64,000 nucleotides of DNA from positions 100,328-164,327 of the forward strand of contig CASPWD010000005.1 of NCBI GenBank assembly GCA_949425635.1, in the 5' to 3' direction. The notes under the pieces were generated by a model that did no database searches, was not told the DNA's origin, and saw nothing but the letters and a program-made list of their open reading frames with translations. The position numbers were made by a program, and so were the translations under genes. This document shows positions 11,679 to 28,836 of this stretch, piece after piece. The stretch comes from an uncultured Bacilli bacterium. GTDB lineage: Bacteria; Bacillota_I; Bacilli_A; RF39; UBA660. Every line of letters begins with the position of its first letter. Position 1 is the first letter of the stretch.

Positions 11679-13421
11679 TTATTTGTTGTCTTTTATAGAA
11701 AGGCCAAGTTCATTTAATTGAGCTTCATCGACATTACTTGGACATTCACACATTAAGTCAGTAGCACTTGCTGTTTTAGGGAATGCGATAACGTCACGAA
11801 TATTGTCTGTTCCAGTTAATAACATAGTTAGTCTGTCTAATCCTAGAGCAAAACCACCATGTGGAGGACAACCATATTTTAAAGCATCTACGAAGAAACC
11901 GAATTTTTCTCTAATATCTTCTTCTGTAAGTTCAAGAGCTTTAAACATAGTTTCTTGAACCTTTTCATCGTGGATACGAATAGATCCTCCTCCTGCTTCA
12001 TAACCATTAATTACGATGTCATAAGCTTTACTATAGCAATGAGCTTTATCTGTAAGTAGTTTATCTACATCCTCATCTTTAGGTGAAGTAAATGGATGGT
12101 GACAAGCCATGTAACGTCCTTCTTCTTCACTATATTCAAATGATGGGAAATCTACTACCCATAATAGTTTGTAATCCTCTTTCTTAATTAAGTCTAGGTC
12201 ACGAGCAAGTTTGCATCTTAAAGCTCCTAGAGATGTTTTAACTACATTGTATGCTCCACTTACGATAAGAACTAAGTCGTTGTTTTCAACATTAAGTGTT
12301 TCTTTTATAGAGTTTACTTCTTCTGCTGTCATTACTTTGAAGATTGAACCAGATACTTCTTCGTTGTATTTCAAGTAAGCAAGACCTGATGCTCTATATG
12401 TTTTAACATAATCAGTTAGTTTATCTAAGTCTTTACGAGAATATTTGTCTGCTACATTTTTAGCAACGATAGCATTAATTACGCCATTGTTTTCGATGAC
12501 CGTCTTAAATACTGTAAATTCTGTATTTTTGAAGCATTCAGTTATATCATGAATTTCCATGCCAAAACGTAAGTCTGGTTTATCTGAGCCATAGTTAGCG
12601 ATAGCATCATCATATTTCATTCTCATTAAAGGAAGTTTTATATCCATACCCTTTACTTCTTTGAAGATATTAGCTACTAGATTTTCTCCTAACCACATTA
12701 CTTGATCTTCGTCAACAAATGACATTTCAACGTCGATTTGTGTAAACTCAGGTTGTCTATCAGCACGTAAATCTTCATCTCTAAAACATTTAGCTATTTG
12801 GAAATATCTTTCAAATCCAGATACCATAAGCAATTGTTTAAATATTTGAGGTGACTGAGGTAATGCATAAAATTTACCTTTATTAATACGACTTGGTACT
12901 AGGTAGTCACGTGCTCCTTCTGGAGTTGATTTACATAGTATTGGTGTTTCTACTTCTAAGAAGTCTAAGTTGTTTAAGAATTTTCTAGTTGCGAAAGTTA
13001 TTTCATTTCTCACAACGAATTTATTTTTTAGGCTTTCTCTTCTTAAATCAAGATAACGATATTTTAATCTTGTATCTTCTAAGGCGTTAGTATCATCTGT
13101 TATCGCGAATGGTATTTCACGAGATTTGTTAATAAGCTCTAAGTTATCCACTTCTACTTCGATTTCACCAGTAGCCAGTTTTTCATTCTTACTTTCTCTT
13201 TCTACTATTTTACCTGTTACTTTAATAACATATTCATTTCTTAATTCGCAAGCTGTTTCATAAGATGGATTTTCTGGTCTTACAATTACTTGCATGATAC
13301 CTGCTCTATTTCTTAGGTCAATAAATATTAATCCACCTAGATTTCTTACTTTAGAAACCCATCCTGAAATAGTTACAGTTTCTCCTACATTTTTAATATT
13401 ATAATTTTTAAATTTTTCCAT
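11679..13421 (-). CDS. aspS: Aspartate--tRNA ligase
   Basis: OB fold [15 protein letters not shown]; [56 protein letters not shown]. Confidence 0.98.
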
Positions 13422-13488: not shown

Positions 13489-13735
13489 TAAAAAACAGTT
13501 AATCATCCACAAGGGACGAATAACTGTTGAATCCGCGGTACCACCCAAATTATTGTAGGCTTATTTAGTTTAATATATCTAAATGTTCTACAATCACTTT
13601 TACGATAACGGGTATGGCCGGACTAAATATGAATTTTCTAGTCAACTCCTGAGTGTCTTCGTATGTATTAATATATTAGTTTACACCAACCACTAACTCT
13701 CTTTGATACTTTTACATAGTACTCTTCTCAATCAA
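13489..13735 (-). promoter_or_regulatory. T-box riboswitch with Asp (GAC) specifier and terminator
   Basis: Minus strand: AGAGA and GGTG-AA stem I motifs, GAA-GAC specifier (13655-13657), T-box GGGTGGTACCGCG (13534-13546), terminator AACAGTTA...TAACTGTTTTTT. Confidence 0.93.
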
Positions 13736-13805
13736 CATTTCTACCGATATTTTATATCTATTTGGTTTAGTTGTCAAATATTTTTGTTGAATTACATTTA
13801 TAGAT

Positions 13806-14672
13806 TTAACTAACTATTTTGTTGAGTACCATACTTATTATCATCTCATCTTCTATCTTATTTATAGCGAATACTTTGGTGCCTGCATTATTAAGCGATG
13901 TACCTAAATGATACATAATCTTTTTATCTAATATTATAAATCTATCATGAAATGAGTCGTTATACTTAATAGTTAAATTATTATATTCATAATTATACTT
14001 ATCAATATCTAAATTGCTTAGTCTACTTTTACTACTTATAATAAGATTGACCTCTAATTCAACTTTAGAAATCATATCTAAAACATATTTGTCTGCATAA
14101 GAATCAATTATAATTATATCATTTTTTGCATTTTTTAATATATCAATTATCTTCGAATAAGCATCATATATTTGACCATCGAAAAATATTTCATTCTTTA
14201 ATTCATTTTCTTTTGTTTCTAATTTTGTGAATATTTTGTTTATTTCATCCTCGTGCTTCATAACTAAATTATTAATATATTTTTGTTCTAATAAGTTGCC
14301 AGAAATATACTTTCTCATTGCAACAAAAGCATCCATTATTTTGATACTTACTTCAATTGCTGTTTTTGATCTTAGTACTGTTGCAAGCATTGCCACTCCT
14401 TGTTCCGTGAAAACTCTAGGACTATATCTGTTTCCACCTCTACCATTCACGTTTGAGGTCGCAAATTGCGACTTCAAAATTAAAATGTCACTTTCACATA
14501 AAATGAATGAATATCGTTCTGGAAATTTTTCTTTATTTCTATTCACTGCTTCATTTATTCTCTTAGTCTCAACTCTATATAATTTCGCAAGATCACTATC
14601 TAACATAACTTGTTTACCACGTATTTCATATATCATATTTTCGACATTTAATTCTTTAACTAATTCGTTCAT
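13806..14672 (-). CDS. ORF6N DNA-binding domain protein with C-terminal PLD-like domain
   Basis: IRGKQVMLDSDLAKLY.V, FTEQGVAMLATVL (ORF6N); FHDRFIILD...G.SLN (PLD-like). Confidence 0.88.
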   Translation of the reverse strand: MNELVKELNVENMIYEIRGKQVMLDSDLAKLYRVETKRINEAVNRNKEKFPERYSFILCESDILILKSQFATSNVNGRGGNRYSPRVFTEQGVAMLATVLRSKTAIEVSIKIMDAFVAMRKYISGNLLEQKYINNLVMKHEDEINKIFTKLETKENELKNEIFFDGQIYDAYSKIIDILKNAKNDIIIIDSYADKYVLDMISKVELEVNLIISSKSRLSNLDIDKYNYEYNNLTIKYNDSFHDRFIILDKKIMYHLGTSLNNAGTKVFAINKIEDEMIISMVLNKIVS

Positions 14673-16748: not shown

Positions 16749-17453
16749 TTAAGCTTCTTCGCTTAATTTCTCTAAAATACCTTTCATTGCTCCTGCAACA
16801 ACATCACAACTACTAATTAAAAATTCTTCATAAGTAACCTTATTATTGTTATTAGGAACATCTGAAATACTTCTAATAATTAAAAATGGAACATGACTTA
16901 AGAAACATACTTGAGCAATGCTTGCTCCTTCCATCTCTACACATAAAGCATTAAATTTATTACTTATCTTTTCACCCATCTTAGATTCTGTGCAGAAAAT
17001 ATCCCCTGATGCAATAATACCTCTATGATAATTAACTTCACTCATACCACCTAATACTTCATTAGCAATATTTAATAAATAAAGATCAGTATCTACATAT
17101 ACTCCAACGCTAGGTATATATCCTTTTTCATGATTAAATGCTGTTATATCAAAATCATGTTGTACTAACTTTTCTCCAAGTACTATATCCCCTACAGATA
17201 ACTTAGTACTTACACCACCTGCTACACCTATATTAAATACATAATCTACTTTCATGTTATCTATTAATATCTGTGTTGTACGAGCAGCATTTACTTTACC
17301 TACACCACATTCTACTAATACTACTTCTATATTATTTATAGTACTTTCATAGAATTTTAATTCAAATATATCGTATTCTTTTGTTATAGTAAGATACTTC
17401 TTTAAAGCATTAAGTTCTTCTTCCATAGCAAATACTATTCCCACTTTTTTCAT
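16749..17453 (-). CDS. mtnN: 5'-methylthioadenosine/S-adenosylhomocysteine nucleosidase
   Basis: GIVFAMEEE, GVGKVNAA, GVAGG, VEMEGAS, IRSISD; start at MKKVG after SD AGGTGA. Confidence 0.95.
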   Translation of the reverse strand: MKKVGIVFAMEEELNALKKYLTITKEYDIFELKFYESTINNIEVVLVECGVGKVNAARTTQILIDNMKVDYVFNIGVAGGVSTKLSVGDIVLGEKLVQHDFDITAFNHEKGYIPSVGVYVDTDLYLLNIANEVLGGMSEVNYHRGIIASGDIFCTESKMGEKISNKFNALCVEMEGASIAQVCFLSHVPFLIIRSISDVPNNNNKVTYEEFLISSCDVVAGAMKGILEKLSEEA

Positions 17454-17514
17454 AGTTATCACCTGTTTATGTATTATAGCAAAGAGTTTATTATAAAACA
17501 ATTTTATCTATATT

Positions 17515-17614
17515 TTTATTTAGTTCTTTAGAGCTTTACATCTCTAAAGAAAAAGTGGAGCTTGTAATCTCCACTTTAGTACTTCTGAAACTGTAGTTTC
17601 AGAAGTTAATTTTT
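17515..17614. repeat. 100-bp triple-hairpin dispersed repeat, copy 1
   Basis: Hairpins 17524-17551, 17552-17577, 17581-17606; ungapped match to 21332-21431. Confidence 0.9.
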
Positions 17615-17649
17615 GGCTTTATGAATAAATCAAAAAATTTATATTACCT

Positions 17650-18672
17650 TTAATCAATCACCTTATTATTCTCTTGATAAACTTTTGACTTATAATCAAT
17701 AATACCATCTTTAGCTAATCTATAAACATAAAAACACTTAATTACATTTAACTCATCAATAGCATCATAACAATATTTTAATTTACTATATTCTTTATCA
17801 TCTATCATCCAGTTATATGCAGTGTTATCTGCTTTAATTTCATAGTCTTCTATTTCTTCATCTTCAGTAGAAACAATACTACCACTCTTAGCTCTATTAA
17901 AATCACTTTTACAATGAGCTAATTCATGTAATAGAGCAAAATAAATATCTGCATATCTTTTATGTTTCTTAGTAATATAAATAGCTGGTTTATCATTTAA
18001 TACCTTAAATGCTCCTCTTATCTTAGCTCCTTTTAAATCATTTTCAATAGCTAAGAAAATACCATTATCATTAAATTTACTAATTAACTCTTTCTCATTA
18101 AAAATATTATTTCTTGCACAATCTCTTATATAATCAACTAATACATTAATATTTTCTTTTTTATAATCATTCACTTGTTGATTAGATACTACTCTATAAC
18201 ATCTTTCTAGCCATAAAGATAATAACTCTGGTTTATCATTTTTACTTTTATAAAAAATAGAATTATCTTCTTTATATAAAGAATCGGGATTAGTTATTCT
18301 TAAATATCTTAATATATCTTTAGCTATGTAATATTCATCTCTTTCATCTGTAAATTGAAACTCATACTCCTTACTAAACTCTTTATAATTAAATTTATTA
18401 ATATATTTTTTTATAGTTAATTTATTTTTATTAAGAAATTCATTAATTACTTTATCCATTTTAAAGTTACGCTCTACATTTTCAATATAAGATACAGGAA
18501 TATCTGTTACAAATGATATGTTATATATCATATTTTGAGACAACTCTATATCTCCTTTTATTATATCTATAAGATTCTTTGGAGTAGTATTAATTCTCTC
18601 TGCAAATTCTTTATTACTTATATTTCTAAACTTAAGAAATTCTTCTAATTGCTTACCAAACTTATTCATCAT
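17650..18672 (-). CDS. HigA-type HTH antitoxin fused to ImmA/IrrE metallopeptidase
   Basis: N-terminal XRE HTH (ISNKEFAERINTTPKNL); FALLHELAH zinc motif with downstream E..AD. Confidence 0.87.
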   Translation of the reverse strand: MMNKFGKQLEEFLKFRNISNKEFAERINTTPKNLIDIIKGDIELSQNMIYNISFVTDIPVSYIENVERNFKMDKVINEFLNKNKLTIKKYINKFNYKEFSKEYEFQFTDERDEYYIAKDILRYLRITNPDSLYKEDNSIFYKSKNDKPELLSLWLERCYRVVSNQQVNDYKKENINVLVDYIRDCARNNIFNEKELISKFNDNGIFLAIENDLKGAKIRGAFKVLNDKPAIYITKKHKRYADIYFALLHELAHCKSDFNRAKSGSIVSTEDEEIEDYEIKADNTAYNWMIDDKEYSKLKYCYDAIDELNVIKCFYVYRLAKDGIIDYKSKVYQENNKVID

Positions 18673-19003
18673 AGTATATCACTCCTTTATGGTCAAAGTC
18701 TTTATAATGCTCATTACTTATATCTGCTAAATCCATAACTAAACAATTATCTTGTGGTTTTACTATTAATCTTATTACACCACCATGTTTAGATAAATTA
18801 AAAGAATAATAGCCACTATTATTATATTTTAGAGGTTCAAAATCATACATATAAGATAAAGGGTTGTTTTTAAGTTCATTAAAATCACATGAATTCTTTA
18901 TTAATTCAATTATATCTTCTAAATTAGTTAATTGTTCTGTTCTATGCTTCTTCTTTAGTTCCTTAAGTCCTTTATCATAGTTCTTGCTGTATCTAATATT
19001 CAT
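18662..19003 (-). CDS. HigB/RelE family toxin
   Basis: 113 aa upstream of and overlapping the antitoxin; FEPLK...GYYSFNL....RLIVKP pattern. Confidence 0.75.
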   Translation of the reverse strand: MNIRYSKNYDKGLKELKKKHRTEQLTNLEDIIELIKNSCDFNELKNNPLSYMYDFEPLKYNNSGYYSFNLSKHGGVIRLIVKPQDNCLVMDLADISNEHYKDFDHKGVIYYDE

Positions 19004-19141
19004 TAATTAACCTCCTGAAAATATTCCTTTCCTTCATGCATATATTAACACAAAAGTTAATATATGTAAAGAAAACTAAAATATAAAAAACTAGTACACC
19101 TATATACTAGTCTATAACTTCACTTTCAATATATAAGTTTT

Positions 19142-21256
19142 TTAATTGCTAAAATCAAAGACAACCTTCTTTTCATCATCTAACTTCAATTTCGCATTAA
19201 AATTCTTACCATTTTTAGATACGAAACCTTCGATATTCGATGTTACACCTTCACTTAATAATTTCTCTACATTACTTTTAGAAATAATACGTCCACAAAT
19301 TTGAAGACTTACCTTAAACTTACAATTTTGATAATCGCGACATCCATATGCAAATCTATTTTTTATTACTTCACCACCACATAATGGACATTTACCAACT
19401 ACATCGCCATAAAAACCAATATCTGTGTCTTTTTCAATCGTAACATCTTTCTTAATAAATACTTCTTGAATTTCTTTTTTAGCTAAGCCAACTGAATCAT
19501 CAACTGTCATTTCGTTTCTAAATACCTTCTTCAATGCCTTACCCATCTCACTTGTCTTATATTTATCCATCGAAATATTCAATTGCATTAATGAATTAAT
19601 TAAGAATTCCCCTTTAGGTAAAATAGTATAAACATCTTTTTTTAAAGAAATATATTCTGATTTCTTCGCATTATCAATAATACCTGTTCTAGTTGCTTCT
19701 GTTCCTAATTCTAATCCTTCAAATATCGCCTTATAATCTTCTGTATCGTCAACTTCCTCACCATTCGCGATTTTCTCATCAATTTCTTTCTTATCCTCTT
19801 TAAAAGGATTCATTAAATAATTATTTAAAGTCTCTATTGTGTAATGCTTTGGTGGTGTCGTCTCTTTTTCTTTTAACTTAAATAAAGTATTAACTTTATC
19901 TCCTATATTTAAATTTGGTAATATCTTATCTTTAGAACTAGGAGAATCAAATTTCGTCCATCCTGGTTCCTTTATAATCATTCCCTTTAAAATAAAATCT
20001 TCATAATCGCCGACACTAATTTTAATTTCGGTCTTTTCTACTTTACAATCATCACTACAAAATACTGCAACAAATCTTTTAAATATAGTTTGATAAACTA
20101 GGAATTCTTCTTCAGTTAATTTATTCTTATCTGGTATTTTATAAGTTGGTGTTATTGCAGAATGGGACTCTATTTTACTATCATCGAATATTGTCTTCTT
20201 ATCTTTAAACTTAACTGGGTAGCCTAACTTAGAAATATTTTCTAATATCTTCTTTACTTTATCTTTCTCTGCAACTGCTAAATACTCTGAATTTGTTCTC
20301 GGATATGTTAAGAAGCCATTTTCATATAACTTCTGAACAATCTCTAAAGACTTATTCATAGGTATCTTATATTTCTTACCTAATAGATTTTGTAACTTAG
20401 TTAATGAAAATAACTTAGGTGGATTCATTACATCCTTTTTAACTTTTTTGTCCACAACAATAGCATCTACACTATTATACTTAGCACACATCTCTAAGGC
20501 TTTTTTCTGATTATCTTTATCAAACTTTTCTTTACTATTTAATTCAACTACTTCACCATTAGTTTCTTCATTACTCCACATACCATAATACATTTCTGGT
20601 TTGAAGTTACGAATGGCCATATCACGGTCATATATTGCTTTTACAATCGGAATAATAACTCTTCCTACTCTAAGTAAAGTTCCTGTCTTAAGGGTAGCAT
20701 ATCTTGTTAAGTTTACACCATATAACCAATCTGTATAAGTTCTAGCAAATCCTTCATTAGCTAAATTATCGTATTCACTGTCTAATTTCATTTCTTGTAA
20801 GCCTTGATAGATAGTCTCCTGTGTTTGATCTGGTAACCATAAGCGATATATTTCTTTTTCACTTTTTAAGGCATTATTTATACATAAACGTACAATAATT
20901 TCTCCTTCTCTATCCGAGTCGCCAGCATTTACTATTTTTACTACATCTTCTCTATTACATAATGAACTTATTATATTAAATTGTTTTTGTACTCCACTAT
21001 CTATTTGCTTATTACTATCTTTCTTTAAATTAAATTTAAACTTTGAAGGAAAGCAAGGTAGATTATCCATCTTCCATTTTGTATCTGTTACATTATCTTC
21101 ATAGTCTTCTATATCTGCTAATGTAAATAGATGTCCGAAAGCCCATGATACTAAATATTCTTGATTAGAATAGTATCCATCATTTCTTTTCATATTACCA
21201 ATAGCACTTACTATATTTCTAGCTAAAGATGGTTTTTCTGCTATTATTAATATCAT
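19142..21256 (-). CDS. topB: DNA topoisomerase III (type IA)
   Basis: IIAEKPS, GHL, DSDREGE, VGRV, catalytic LTYPRT, LGTEATR, C-terminal zinc ribbon and Toprim C-terminal repeat. Confidence 0.93.
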   Translation of the reverse strand: MILIIAEKPSLARNIVSAIGNMKRNDGYYSNQEYLVSWAFGHLFTLADIEDYEDNVTDTKWKMDNLPCFPSKFKFNLKKDSNKQIDSGVQKQFNIISSLCNREDVVKIVNAGDSDREGEIIVRLCINNALKSEKEIYRLWLPDQTQETIYQGLQEMKLDSEYDNLANEGFARTYTDWLYGVNLTRYATLKTGTLLRVGRVIIPIVKAIYDRDMAIRNFKPEMYYGMWSNEETNGEVVELNSKEKFDKDNQKKALEMCAKYNSVDAIVVDKKVKKDVMNPPKLFSLTKLQNLLGKKYKIPMNKSLEIVQKLYENGFLTYPRTNSEYLAVAEKDKVKKILENISKLGYPVKFKDKKTIFDDSKIESHSAITPTYKIPDKNKLTEEEFLVYQTIFKRFVAVFCSDDCKVEKTEIKISVGDYEDFILKGMIIKEPGWTKFDSPSSKDKILPNLNIGDKVNTLFKLKEKETTPPKHYTIETLNNYLMNPFKEDKKEIDEKIANGEEVDDTEDYKAIFEGLELGTEATRTGIIDNAKKSEYISLKKDVYTILPKGEFLINSLMQLNISMDKYKTSEMGKALKKVFRNEMTVDDSVGLAKKEIQEVFIKKDVTIEKDTDIGFYGDVVGKCPLCGGEVIKNRFAYGCRDYQNCKFKVSLQICGRIISKSNVEKLLSEGVTSNIEGFVSKNGKNFNAKLKLDDEKKVVFDFSN

Positions 21257-21331
21257 AGTATCTAGACCTTCTTTCTATTTATTAATTTTTTCCAAGTATT
21301 TCTATTATAACATAAATATTTTTATTATTTC

Positions 21332-21431
21332 TTTATTTAGTTCTTTGGAGCCTTAGGTCTCCAAAGAAAAAATGGAGAGTGTGATCTCCATTTTAGAACT
21401 TCTGAACCTATAGTTTCAGAAGTTAATTTTT
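21332..21431. repeat. 100-bp triple-hairpin dispersed repeat, copy 2
   Basis: Same orientation as copy 1; 13 substitutions, including compensatory pairs in stems 1 and 2. Confidence 0.9.
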
Positions 21432-21453
21432 TTTAAAACATTAAATTATTCCA

Positions 21454-22194
21454 TTACCATAAACTTGGATTTTCAAAACAATCATAAGCGTCATCAGCAT
21501 TTGCCGAATTCCTAAACTCTTTATAAGATATATTGTGTGGAGAATATATGTTATCTCTTTCATAAAAATATGGTTGTTCCCAAAAAATATGATTCTGATC
21601 TTCAAATAAAAATGCAAGAGTTGAACTAAACATCATACAAGGGATATTGTTTTTCAAAAAATAAATTCTTATCTTTATTTTATCTCCTACTCTTATTTTC
21701 CTATCATAGCAACAACTGTACCAGACACTCTTATTATCTACTAAAGTTTCTAGAAAACTATAATCAGTCAAAACTATACTTTTTTTGTTTGTTGAAACAA
21801 TATCTAGACATTCTATATCACTTTTACCTATATTTTTTATTATAACATCTTTAAAATCATGTTTATTCTTATTTTTTATTCCTTTTGGATAAATTATTTC
21901 ATAATTATTATTTTCATCATATTTAATATTAAAAGGAGTTATAAATATTTCCATACTAATATCTAAATTATTGTCTTCCTTTTCAATGTACAACTCTGGT
22001 TTATTTTCAAAGTTCTTTTTCTTTTCATTTTCTAACTTCTCTTTTTGTTTTCGATTTTCTGATTTCCTGTTAAAATATGCTGTTGAAATAAAATTTAATA
22101 TCCAACCAACAATAATACCTATCAAAGTAGCTAAAAAACTATTTTTATTAATATAATTAAAAACATCTTTTAAAATTTCTATAAATTTATTCAT
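21454..22194 (-). CDS. Hypothetical protein with N-terminal TM anchor
   Basis: TM FLATLIGIIVGWIL followed by a charged coil and beta-rich domain. Confidence 0.7.
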   Translation of the reverse strand: MNKFIEILKDVFNYINKNSFLATLIGIIVGWILNFISTAYFNRKSENRKQKEKLENEKKKNFENKPELYIEKEDNNLDISMEIFITPFNIKYDENNNYEIIYPKGIKNKNKHDFKDVIIKNIGKSDIECLDIVSTNKKSIVLTDYSFLETLVDNKSVWYSCCYDRKIRVGDKIKIRIYFLKNNIPCMMFSSTLAFLFEDQNHIFWEQPYFYERDNIYSPHNISYKEFRNSANADDAYDCFENPSLW

Positions 22195-26574: not shown

Positions 26575-27404
26575 TTATTTTTTACCTTTTCTACCATATG
26601 AATTACGTGCTAAATTTCCATTTTCATATTTGAAAGTAACTTCTGGAACAACATCATATTTATATTTAATAGTGATATTTCTATCTTTATCAATAACTAT
26701 TCTGTCTATTAAAGTATCAATAAGTTATTTTTTAATCTAATAGTTTTTTTATCTTTTTCAATTTGTAATTCTTTAATAACTTTATCTATATTTGTTGTTT
26801 CTTTATGAATATTTTTAACAATTGGTGCAGTATCTGGATTGGGTATTAAGTGGCCTTTATCTTCTGGGTCTCTCATATAGCCAAAACAAGGTAAACTTCC
26901 AACAAATTTTCCATTTTTTCTTTTTTCATTTAATACATTTCTAATTTTAACTAAGTTTTGCTTACTATAATAATCATTACAAGCGATTATAAATGTTGAT
27001 GAATCATTACTAGCTTGATTTTTAAAACTATCATATGATTCTAATATAGATATAAATCTTATATTATTCTCTGGAAAGAATGTTTCAATATAAAAACCTG
27101 TCATAACATGATCTCTACCTAATCTAGATAAATCTTTAACTATTACACAATTAATTTTTTTATTATTTATATCTTCTAACATTTTTTGAAATCCAGGTCT
27201 TTCAAAATCAGTACCAGAATATCCATCATCAACATATTCTTTAACTAAATTAAAATCATTATTTTTAACATAGCCTCTTAATAATTTTTTTTGATTAATT
27301 ACACTTTCACTATCAGATTCATATTTTTTATCTTTATCTTCTTGAGATAATCTTATGTAGATTCCAACATTGAAATCTACTCCAGTTAAGTAAGTATTAT
27401 ACAT
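26575..27404 (-). pseudogene. Large serine recombinase pseudogene (internal deletion and frameshift)
   Basis: YIRLSQED, S..NQ, DDGYSG...RPGF, VKDLSRLGR intact; sequence breaks after APIVKNI; C-terminal LIDRIVIDKDRNITIKYK lies in another frame; recombinase/zinc-ribbon core missing. Confidence 0.85.
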
Positions 27405-27726
27405 TTATCATCCTTTTCATCTCACTTAATTGGGTATTAAGACTCATCCATGATAGCATCATCTTACTTAACTTGCAAATCATTAGTTAGATAAATCTCC
27501 TTTTTCGTATTTTATTATCTCCTCGATAAGATATTTTAATATTAAATCTTTAAATGAAGTGTTATTCAAATAGTACTCCTCCTTTAGTTTGTTTCCTATT
27601 TATCTATGCTTAATTTAATTAATTTTTCATACATATATCAGACTCCTTTCTAGTTATTAACTAGTTATATATTTAAACTAGTTTAATTAAATTAATCTAT
27701 TATATTTAATTTTAATATTAATATTT

Positions 27727-28098
27727 TTATATTCTATTTATTATATTATTGTAGCTAAATACATCTTTTGAGAAAGAAAAATACATCCATTTAATTAGTC
27801 TTTATAATCTAGACTTATGGATGTATTTATTTCATTAACTATAAATATTTTTCTAATAAATTTATGTTTAAATTCCATTTTAATATAATTATTATCAGAT
27901 AATTCTTTTAGTAACCTAGTTATGGCTCTAGTTCCTAAATTTAATTTATCTGCTAAAACTATTATTAGCATAACAATATCCTTGTTGATAAGTTAATAAC
28001 ACTAATAAACCATATAGTAATTTAGCACTAGAACTTACATTAGTATCCGATAATAACACTATTGGTATCTTTATATAATTATCATAATTCACTTGCAT
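27727..28098 (-). pseudogene. Frameshifted HTH replication-initiator-like gene remnant
   Basis: SD AGGAGG; MQVNYDNYIKIP...SSSAKLLYGLL...GYCYANN, then in another frame LADKLNLGTRAITRLLKEL.DNNYI. Confidence 0.7.
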
Positions 28099-28104
28099 CA
28101 CCTC

Positions 28105-28257
28105 CTAATCTTTATAATTATGATTTTTTAGCATTTCAATATAACCTATTTCTAATAATTCTTTCATCATTTTATAAATAGATAAGTTATAAAATTTAGC
28201 CATTAGTTTTATTCTATCGAATAATTCAAATGGTAAATATAATTTAAATATTCTCAT
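28105..28257 (-). CDS. Small ribbon-helix-helix (CopG/Arc-like) protein, 50 aa, not in ORF track
   Basis: SD AGGAGG; MRIFKLYLPFELFDRIKLMAKFYNLSIYKMMKELLEIG fits a strand-helix-helix pattern. Confidence 0.65.
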   Translation of the reverse strand: MRIFKLYLPFELFDRIKLMAKFYNLSIYKMMKELLEIGYIEMLKNHNYKD

Positions 28258-28554
28258 GTTACACCTCCTTCCTAATAGGATGGTTTCCTATTAAATATTG
28301 TAATTTCTAAAAAAGTAGGATAAGAAGACTATTCTTATTTCGTACTTACGAAATTCATCCTACTTTGTAGGTTAATATAAAGGATGTTAGTCTATTTAAC
28401 CCTTTATTTATCATAGATATTAATTTGTTATTATCATCCTATTTTAATAAATCTAGTAATTTTTATAGGATGATTAGTCATAAACACCACCTCCTTTAAA
28501 GCAACAACAAAAAAAGAAGACCTAAGCCTTCCCATAAATATTGCTATTTTACTA

Positions 28555-28765
28555 TATTTTATCACTTGACTGTATTTAGTCAATAAACTAAATTGTATTT
28601 TTTAGTAGTCGAATAGTAAACTAAATCGTATTCGAATCCTACACAAAAAGTACACTGAATTGTATTTGGATAGTAAACTAGATTATTCATATCTTCACTA
28701 ATGTATATAAACTTATCGCTACTTTACCATATTCTATCACTTGATTTGTTATAGTCAATAAATTA
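28555..28765 (-). promoter_or_regulatory. Two near-identical sigma70-type promoters with intervening short direct repeats
   Basis: TTGACT-16 nt ending TGA-TAAAAT and TTGACT-16 nt ending TGA-TAGAAT; TAAACTA repeats between them. Confidence 0.55.
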
Positions 28766-28836
28766 ATTTTTCTATTTTTTATTATTTTTTGACTTTTTTT
28801 GCCAAAACAATATTCTAAATTTATTATTAATTCATT

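Follow-up and report, generated by a model that had tools for sequence, protein, structure and literature searches.

In an uncultured Bacilli bacterium (GTDB lineage Bacteria; Bacillota_I; Bacilli_A; RF39; UBA660), a previously undescribed block of 100-140 bases, built from three look-alike hairpins, stands at the borders of a defence-gene hotspot. Two copies, A and B, lie in the window, by which we mean the whole 64,000-nucleotide (nt) stretch analysed here (GenBank assembly GCA_949425635.1, contig CASPWD010000005.1, positions 100,328 to 164,327). Their stems covary, they are conserved above neutral sites, and they carry terminator-like features between the end of one gene and the promoter of the next. 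Tentatively, and at somewhat less than an even chance, we take the element to be a composite terminator/insulator module, a new low-copy hairpin repeat of the repetitive extragenic palindromic (REP) or BOX kind that has been duplicated within the hotspot. Termination or insulation would then be the function under selection, and the structure would act as RNA.

A three-hairpin repeat in two copies

Window positions 17515-17614 and 21332-21431 form a gap-free alignment with 13 differences (at 16, 21, 25, 26, 31, 41, 47, 48, 52, 60, 66, 76 and 79 of the alignment). An earlier examination of the letters alone (the sequence-only reading) had reported this alignment, a full base-pair swap in each of two stems, other changes mostly in loops or linkers, and two co-oriented copies placed between a stop codon and the next promoter; realignment bore out each of these points. 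Four of the 13 differences form the swaps, 16/31 in stem 1 and 41/60 in stem 2, while six lie in loops (21, 25, 26, 47, 48 and 52), one in a linker (66) and two at the tip of stem 3 (76 and 79). The placement holds on the minus strand, where stop codons at 17650-17652 (A) and 21454-21456 (B) precede the copies and TGnTATAAT motifs at 17481-17473 (A) and 21312-21304 (B) follow them. The conserved unit is longer than 100 nt and also takes in an A-tract, a short AAATAAA tail and, in most copies, an A/U-rich fourth hairpin (H4) on the 5' side.

Both copies fold into three adjacent hairpins. On the minus strand the folding energies are -37.0 and -37.2 kcal/mol (z -7.35 and -6.68), with none of 200 shuffled sequences as good; the plus-strand fold gives z -5.47 and -5.83. 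All sizeable open reading frames (ORFs) from 11.6 to 51 kb of the window are on the minus strand, and the order in a transcript is therefore A-tract, H3, H2, H1, where H1 to H3 denote stems 1 to 3 (Table 1). Two further likenesses are speculative, one of the 11-4/6-11 layout to Xer dif-type sites and one to CsrA-type loop binding; none of the loops contains GGA. Within the 2.39-Mb, 29-contig assembly that holds the window (genome G000, 93% complete, with the window on contig C5), the repeat has a single further full-length match, the second copy (E 2.3e-29). A covariance model scores the two copies at 132.5 and 125.4 bits, with weaker reverse-strand echoes at the same sites.

Distribution among relatives

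The element was found in at least 16 copies, 14 of them in 8 of 27 genomes of the genus and two on a single metagenome contig. The genus was scanned with the covariance model at E up to 0.001, with G000 counted among the 27, and these genomes are related rather than independent samples. Each positive genome has one to three copies, all in one region: three in G013, two each in G000, G018, G005 and G023 (one of the last truncated), and one each in G003, G006 and G002. In the family, sampled at one genome per genus, the model matched 5 of 151 genomes (E up to 0.01), the four outside the genus being weak at 33-46 bits; at class level the matches were 2 of 151 genomes, G000 and G182. In metagenomes, a degenerate H3 pattern matched at least 116 loci, and the model, run on 80 of them, found true copies on one contig only; the pattern was loose and the matches listed were incomplete, so the metagenome count is a floor. 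Two patterns gave no match on viral contigs, and searches of plasmid and phage collections returned no match to the element.

The sequence-only reading had called the element unannotated, and the Rfam searches agree with it. At gathering thresholds, Rfam matched only a T-box in the whole window (13509-13744). For positions 17440-17680 with E up to 10, the best match scored 18.6 bits against a cut-off of 86, and a search with the G003 copy was empty at E up to 0.1. The repeat is a new small structured family with clear covariation, present in only a few genera.

Covariation and conservation

Pairing was assessed in an alignment of 13 copies with 27 pairs in three helices, or 351 pair cells. Of these cells 98.3% are paired, compared with a mean of 85.0% in shuffles, and 15 of the 27 pairs have changed on both sides, where shuffles average 8.1; in neither measure did any of 500 shuffles reach the observed value. 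The covariation score is 0.418 against 0.163 in shuffles. This control ignores relatedness, so its figures are not probabilities; sliding the partners by 1-3 columns, which keeps relatedness, lowers pairing to 21-61%. The earlier proposal that covariation points to selection on structure is strengthened by the 15 two-sided pairs. The helix cells are almost purely Watson-Crick (342 of 351), with three G-U and three A-C combinations.

Sequence identity was compared with that at four-fold sites of adjacent genes. Between G000 and G018, copy A is identical at 0.905 compared with 0.68 in the phosphorylase gene, and copy B at 0.885 compared with 0.71 in the topoisomerase III gene. Between G000 and G013 the topoisomerase III sites give 0.535, compared with 0.747 for copy A and 0.573 for copy B. 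Copy B between clades combines near-neutral sequence with retained pairs, which, judged from these alignments, is a signature of selection on structure.

One hairpin unit and its relatives in other genera

The three hairpins are versions of one unit, in which about nine pairs are followed by an A (5') opposite a G (3'), one closing pair and a loop of 3-4 nt. The A-G mismatch is present in 27 of 39 hairpins; the reverse arrangement occurs in none, C-U in one and a Watson-Crick pair in five. It is the gene-direction (minus) strand that reads A-G, and the plus strand reads C-U. The single C-U hairpin is explained by its tip being an exact inversion of the neighbouring copy's tip: in G013, the H3 tip of the second copy (L063:1680-1705) is the exact reverse complement of that of the third (L063:2942-2967). 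By its sequence, this is a small DNA inversion within the palindrome. The fixed orientation to genes, together with the strand-specific mismatch, would favour one strand.

Related units with RAGAC-NNNAG-GCUY tips are found in two other genera, at five scattered housekeeping loci in G182 and two in G177. In G182, rows of these hairpins occupy the region upstream of parA, the gap separating nifU from polC, a site after xseA that faces spoIVB, and two further sites. The G177 rows are close to hsp20 and to a pyruvate:ferredoxin oxidoreductase gene; which way they point relative to genes is ambiguous because the best-matching loop is itself palindromic. Across 301 genomes of the family, a 16-mer pattern of the tip gave six matches in three genomes, four of them in G182, and one control match. 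A family-wide spread of the unit was considered and ruled against on this count (3 of 301 genomes) and on the class-level result of the model (2 of 151). A scan of G000 for more A-G/C-T units returned the element's own and A/T-only chance hairpins, and none further with G-C content.

These relatives bear on a different account, in which the element is a small REP/BOX-like repeat, selfish or domesticated, with units that an unlinked factor recognises on one strand, either as RNA or as single-stranded DNA; its terminator-like look would be a side effect of intergenic location. The single design shared by all three hairpins, with its one-sided mismatch (none reversed, one flipped), fits this account, as do the related units at the housekeeping loci of G182 and G177 and the four 16-mer matches in G182 (against one control match in 301 genomes). 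The pneumococcal BOX, RUP and SPRITE repeats, as outlined in PMC3049150, are likewise confined to few related species and thought to affect co-transcribed genes. A repeat that spreads by itself would sit uneasily with one to three copies per genus genome, all in one region, with the lack of copies on the plasmids, phages and viral contigs searched, and with the lack of further G-C-containing units of this design in G000, as well as with the negative Y1 search of that assembly and the lack of a clean filled-versus-empty site, both described below. We consider this account unlikely, though not negligible.

The sequence-only reading had suggested an element like a REP or a miniature inverted-repeat transposable element (MITE); one driven by an HUH/RAYT transposase does not agree with the copy number, the single region or the outcome of the transposase search. 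PF01797 (Y1) has no match in the 93%-complete G000 assembly; the control was positive in 6 of 14 reference genomes. In the comparison of filled and empty sites no clean empty site with target duplication emerged, since the sequence ahead of every copy also varies; the only end-to-end similarity was weak and A/T-rich. A target-site duplication around the extra genes of G018 was also looked for and rejected, the blastn overlap being only weak A/T-rich similarity.

Two positions at a defence hotspot

All 16 copies found have the gene-direction orientation and lie 0-40 nt past the end of the upstream gene and 15-30 nt before a conserved promoter. In G000, G018, G023 and the metagenome contig, the promoter that type A copies stand ahead of serves a phosphorylase-amylase block, and in G003, G005 and G013 the same promoter drives an amylase leader of about 330 nt. 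The -35 region ATAGATAAAnTTG is common to type A promoters and precedes the amylase leader in G003, G005, G013 and G002. The amylase gene is present in 16 of the 27 genus genomes, in 10 of which the module is missing ahead of it; in G002 the same promoter has a plain terminator (a hairpin and T-run) in place of the module. The leader is itself conserved from the consensus promoter to the amylase gene in G003, G013, G005 and G002 (L035:1750-2090, L036:9390-9720 and L064:7380-7640, with the G002 locus at L089). A terminator hairpin closes the leader, which matches nothing in Rfam at E up to 0.1 and may be a riboregulator.

Type B copies lie upstream of topoisomerase III, which is encoded in 10 of the 27 genomes, six of them with the module. 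In the others, G001 has H1 only, directly after the stop codon and followed by TTTT; in G017 the preceding gene abuts the promoter with no hairpin; and G022 has an unrelated plain hairpin and T-run ahead of the promoter. In G019 (L074:140-260) we noticed by eye a 5S rRNA-like gene and a T-run directly before the topoisomerase III promoter. TGnTATAAT is kept at the same place in all 10 genomes and on the metagenome contig, with or without hairpins, which identifies a promoter there and puts the module outside the downstream transcript. Topoisomerase III was not found in G023, where the second copy is degraded and truncated inside H1.

Upstream of the copies are variable genes, mostly of defence type, such as AAA_21, a Dam methylase with a DUF6997 nuclease, a MutH-like nuclease, reverse transcriptases, Fic and Cas9-Csn2. 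The hotspot has conserved flanks, with SDR and ThyX on one side and the amylase and aspartyl-tRNA synthetase (AspRS) on the other. Between them the defence genes vary by genome and include type I restriction-modification (R-M), a DpnII-like nuclease, AAA_21, Fic, reverse transcriptases and Cas9. The suggestion of the sequence-only reading that the copies mark gene-insertion points fits this arrangement, as they sit where gene content shifts between genomes. Homology of the copy A module with G018, G023 and the metagenome contig begins at the module although the upstream genes differ, and that of copy B with G018 and the metagenome contig starts at 21432.

With regard to the Cas9 loci, G013 has a clustered regularly interspaced short palindromic repeat (CRISPR) array of 28 repeats of 36 nt (L079:1864-3715), downstream of the Cas9 locus that follows topoisomerase III; G018 instead has Cas9-Cas2-Csn2 genes upstream of copy B. 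A trans-activating CRISPR RNA or other CRISPR-linked RNA was rejected as an identity for the element: G000 has no Cas9 match, and the G013 CRISPR repeat is unrelated to it.

The patchy presence of the module might suggest functionless duplicated intergenic DNA, in which the paired changes come from template switching within palindromes and not from selection. Stems that are nearly pure Watson-Crick, with G-U no more frequent than A-C (3 of 351 each), are what templated palindrome correction would give; one hairpin tip is flipped, and the module is missing ahead of topoisomerase III in G017, G019 and G022 and ahead of most amylase genes. Such DNA would not be expected to stay well above the conservation of four-fold sites, nor to keep three stems through many sequence states across clades. 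Correction of this kind would also hardly leave the A-G mismatch standing in most hairpins, and the one decayed copy is found where the downstream gene was not. We regard this explanation as highly improbable.

A probable two-way terminator and insulator

In both copies a terminator scan picked out two hairpins as terminator-like, H2 for minus-strand and H3 for plus-strand transcription; it found six such sites in 5.8 kb compared with 0.8 expected. Both have the arrangement of an intrinsic terminator, a G+C stem followed directly by a U-rich tract, which H1 lacks in this clade. In G000 the scan showed no other terminator-like site between the gene for the 340-amino-acid (340-aa) protein or the 246-aa protein and the next promoter. 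This, together with the plain terminators at the same place in relatives that lack the module, leads us to read the element as a two-way terminator and insulator. The placement of all 16 copies, the selection on pairing, the conservation above neutral sites and the decay of the copy in G023, where topoisomerase III was not found, also speak for this reading.

On this model, the module would close off whichever gene lies upstream and shield the conserved promoter just downstream. Transcripts of the often-exchanged upstream gene would pass H3 and end at H2, where a hairpin is followed by a U-run. The A-tract before H3 would serve as a U-run on the opposite strand, so that H3 could stop oncoming transcription, and H1 and the A/U-rich H4 may add structure, either as back-up barriers or as protection of the RNA 3' end. 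The module probably arose by tandem duplication of one hairpin unit and may then have been copied to a second promoter inside the one defence-gene hotspot, with recombination between the copies keeping them alike.

Several observations weigh against this model. Three hairpins, conserved loops and an A-G mismatch kept in 27 of 39 hairpins are all more than a terminator requires, and H1, which has no U-tract in this clade, lies past the expected termination point. The usual terminators of G000 are single A-tract/stem/T-tract hairpins, and of 195 perfect hairpins in the genome only these two sites have three side by side. In G182 the related hairpins often adjoin a canonical terminator, and one set seems to belong to a 5' leader, with a start codon no more than about 40 nt away. 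G-U pairs are few, as few as A-C, and the stems alone therefore carry no RNA-strand signal.

The opposite strand offers another candidate, a plus-strand small RNA gene of about 100 nt, antisense to the local genes, which would run H1-H2-H3 and end at the T-run after H3. Three hairpins with a final terminator are a common small-RNA shape; H3 followed by TTAATTTTT is a good intrinsic terminator on the plus strand of both copies, and the fold of that strand is significant (z -5.5 and -5.8). But no conserved plus-strand promoter accompanies it, promoter-like matches numbering 39 compared with 43.8 in shuffles, and the conserved mismatch has its A-G form on the minus strand, the wrong one for such a gene, the plus strand reading C-U. 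The orientation is moreover tied to the flanking genes at every locus examined, and Rfam gave no match. We think a small RNA gene very unlikely.

If the terminator/insulator model is correct, the genome could keep swapping defence genes at the hotspot while its conserved neighbours remain undisturbed, through a strong and portable two-way stop signal ahead of a fixed promoter. The compact unit, with its A-G mismatch kept while the stems change, would be easily tested and is a possible terminator part for low-G+C bacteria. Were the element a recognition site instead, it would point to a partner protein in uncultured gut Firmicutes.

Exchange between copies and the recombination alternative

What the direct repeats bracket differs: in G000 and G018 it is topoisomerase III with a pair of genes for 113-aa and 340-aa proteins (the 113/340 pair), on the metagenome contig topoisomerase III by itself, and in G013 a single TPR gene. 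Block order varies by clade: the type A copy and amylase come before the type B copy and topoisomerase III in G013 and G005, and the type B copy and topoisomerase III before the type A copy in G000 and G018. Homology between genomes breaks at or within the element. Within a genome H3 is alike, but it differs between clades, as do H2 and H1 of type B copies; sequence is evidently exchanged between the copies.

Such a pattern might be produced by a recombination site, or by portable homology, for exchanging, stacking and moving cassettes in the hotspot. The bracketed blocks, their changing order, the signs of exchange at H3 and the homology breaks would all follow from it, and the H3 tip that is exactly inverted relative to its neighbour copy is a DNA-level event. 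The breakpoints at the edges, however, follow in part from defining a conserved block, and the majority of the variable genes in the 20-30-kb islands are not separated by an element. No recombinase is common to the loci, three half-site pairs that differ and co-vary are unsuited to a one-protein site, and the sole flanking repeat, ATTAAA, is short, A/T-rich and includes a stop codon. Taking both sides together, we hold recombination to be a doubtful explanation.

An attC-like site, as the sequence-only reading proposed, is not borne out by three separate, near-perfect hairpins, by a contig without a tyrosine recombinase or by an island in which most genes lack the element. PF00589 has five matches in G000 and none on window contig C5, and no tyrosine recombinase was seen among the neighbours of the element in G013, G005, G006, G018 and G023. 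A resolvase res-type site was likewise rejected: the serine resolvase gene (26709-27404) is in G000 only and 5 kb off, and the H1-H3 arms differ and co-vary. As a long shot, some factor that acts on single-stranded DNA or RNA might recognise the hairpin unit as a mark, with rows of units serving as borders for capturing, stacking and moving gene blocks in a hairpin-guided manner, unlinked to a recombinase and distinct from integrons.

Neighbouring genes

The features around the two copies are listed in Table 1. Downstream of the phosphorylase gene follow an alpha-amylase-family gene, an ORF6N gene and an aspartyl-tRNA synthetase gene (11679-13421) led by the T-box; the T-box leader itself, at 13509-13744 on the minus strand, scores 135.4 bits. 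The ORF6N-domain gene (13806-14672, minus strand), between the amylase gene and the T-box, matches candidate defence family PDC-S05 (E 2.3e-96). In G018 its place is taken by another gene, of 305 aa, and this may be a second small variable slot.

The 113/340 pair behaves as a movable cassette. On the metagenome contig it is missing from the interval that separates topoisomerase III from copy A, and in G006 it lies upstream of topoisomerase III, while in G023 only a 341-aa homologue was matched, beside other genes. The 340-aa protein has an N-terminal helix-turn-helix-like match and a PD-Lambda-2_B-like match.

Upstream of copy B, a defence/mobile-type island extends to about 41.6 kb and includes genes for an AAA_23 ATPase, a DpnII-like nuclease, DUF4238, the serine resolvase, a type I R-M system, Fic, DUF6119, a primase-type zinc-ribbon protein and an AAA_15/21 ATPase. 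Positions 27405-28836 (about 1.4 kb), which separate the serine resolvase gene from that for the type I restriction R subunit, contain no ORF of at least 90 aa and may hold a decayed gene or a non-coding element.

Table 1 Coordinates of the two copies, their hairpins and the adjoining genes and promoters
Feature	Position	Strand	Description
Nucleoside phosphorylase gene (PNP_UDP_1)	16749..17453	-	Probable ATG start 17453; ORF listing extends to TTG at 17501; ribosome-binding site read from sequence
Promoter-like site of phosphorylase gene	17473..17501	-	TTGTTT, 17 nt, TGc-TATAAT; ~20 nt downstream of copy A
Copy A, whole module	17508..17649	-	A/U-rich 5' part with H4, then H3, H2, H1, AAATAAA tail; directly after stop of 340-aa gene
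Copy A, H1	17524..17551	-	-10.5 kcal/mol; 5' arm is the U-tract of H2; no U-tract after H1
Copy A, H2	17552..17577	-	-11.3 kcal/mol; then TTTTTCTTT on minus strand, terminator-like
Copy A, H3	17581..17606	-	11 pairs, 4-nt loop, -13.1 kcal/mol; T-run after it on plus strand, terminator-like there
Two-gene cassette (113 aa + 340 aa)	17650..19003	-	Between topoisomerase III and copy A
Topoisomerase III gene (Toprim, Topoisom_bac, Toprim_Crpt)	19142..21256	-	Gene behind every type B copy
Extended -10 of topoisomerase III promoter	21304..21312	-	TGt-TATAAT; read from sequence
Copy B	21325..21439	-	A-tract, H3, H2, H1, tail; without H4; ~15 nt past stop of 246-aa gene
Copy B, H1	21341..21368	-	A-G mismatch beneath CUAA loop; -14.2 kcal/mol
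Copy B, H2	21369..21394	-	Terminator-like on minus strand
Copy B, H3	21398..21424	-	A-G mismatch beneath UAUA loop

Comparison with known systems

With intrinsic and bidirectional terminators the element shares the H2 stem and its U-run in gene direction, the A-tract in front of H3 and the location after stop codons, and ordinary terminators occupy the same place in relatives. It differs in having three to four hairpins in a row, a sequence kept between two loci and across species, shared loops and a shared A-G mismatch, and an H1 with no U-run.

The attC sites of integrons are single imperfect hairpins with extrahelical bases and conserved R and L boxes, used by a linked IntI integrase. Like them, the element is structured and repeated, follows gene ends directly in a single orientation and lies within a region of exchangeable genes. 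Unlike them, it has three near-perfect hairpins (98.3% of cells paired) and no linked tyrosine recombinase, and its copies bracket at most two gene blocks per genome, so that no more than two 'cassettes' are consecutive.

REP elements, bacterial interspersed mosaic elements (BIMEs) and REPINs, as they are presented in PMC2817692, PMC3116915 and PMC3733652, are short palindromic intergenic units in composite blocks, with proposed roles in termination and mRNA stabilisation. The element is likewise a composite block of such units. REPs usually exceed 100 copies, alternate in orientation within BIMEs and have a RAYT gene alongside, whereas the element has one to three copies with co-oriented units and no Y1 transposase was found in G000. 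The pneumococcal repeats BOX, RUP and SPRITE are described in PMC3049150 as modular, strongly folding and small repeats of a low-G+C Gram-positive, limited to few related species and likely to affect co-transcribed genes. By description rather than alignment the element is of the same sort, but it occupies two promoter-proximal sites only, where the pneumococcal repeats have proliferated widely through the chromosome (PMC3049150).

Core defence hotspots between conserved genes are the subject of PMC10250203, and the locus studied here resembles them, as that abstract presents them, in its conserved flanks around genome-specific defence genes. The element adds a structured repeat at the slot borders, a feature absent from the description in that abstract. 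A member of no family tested, the module resembles in kind the REP/BIME and BOX-type repeats.

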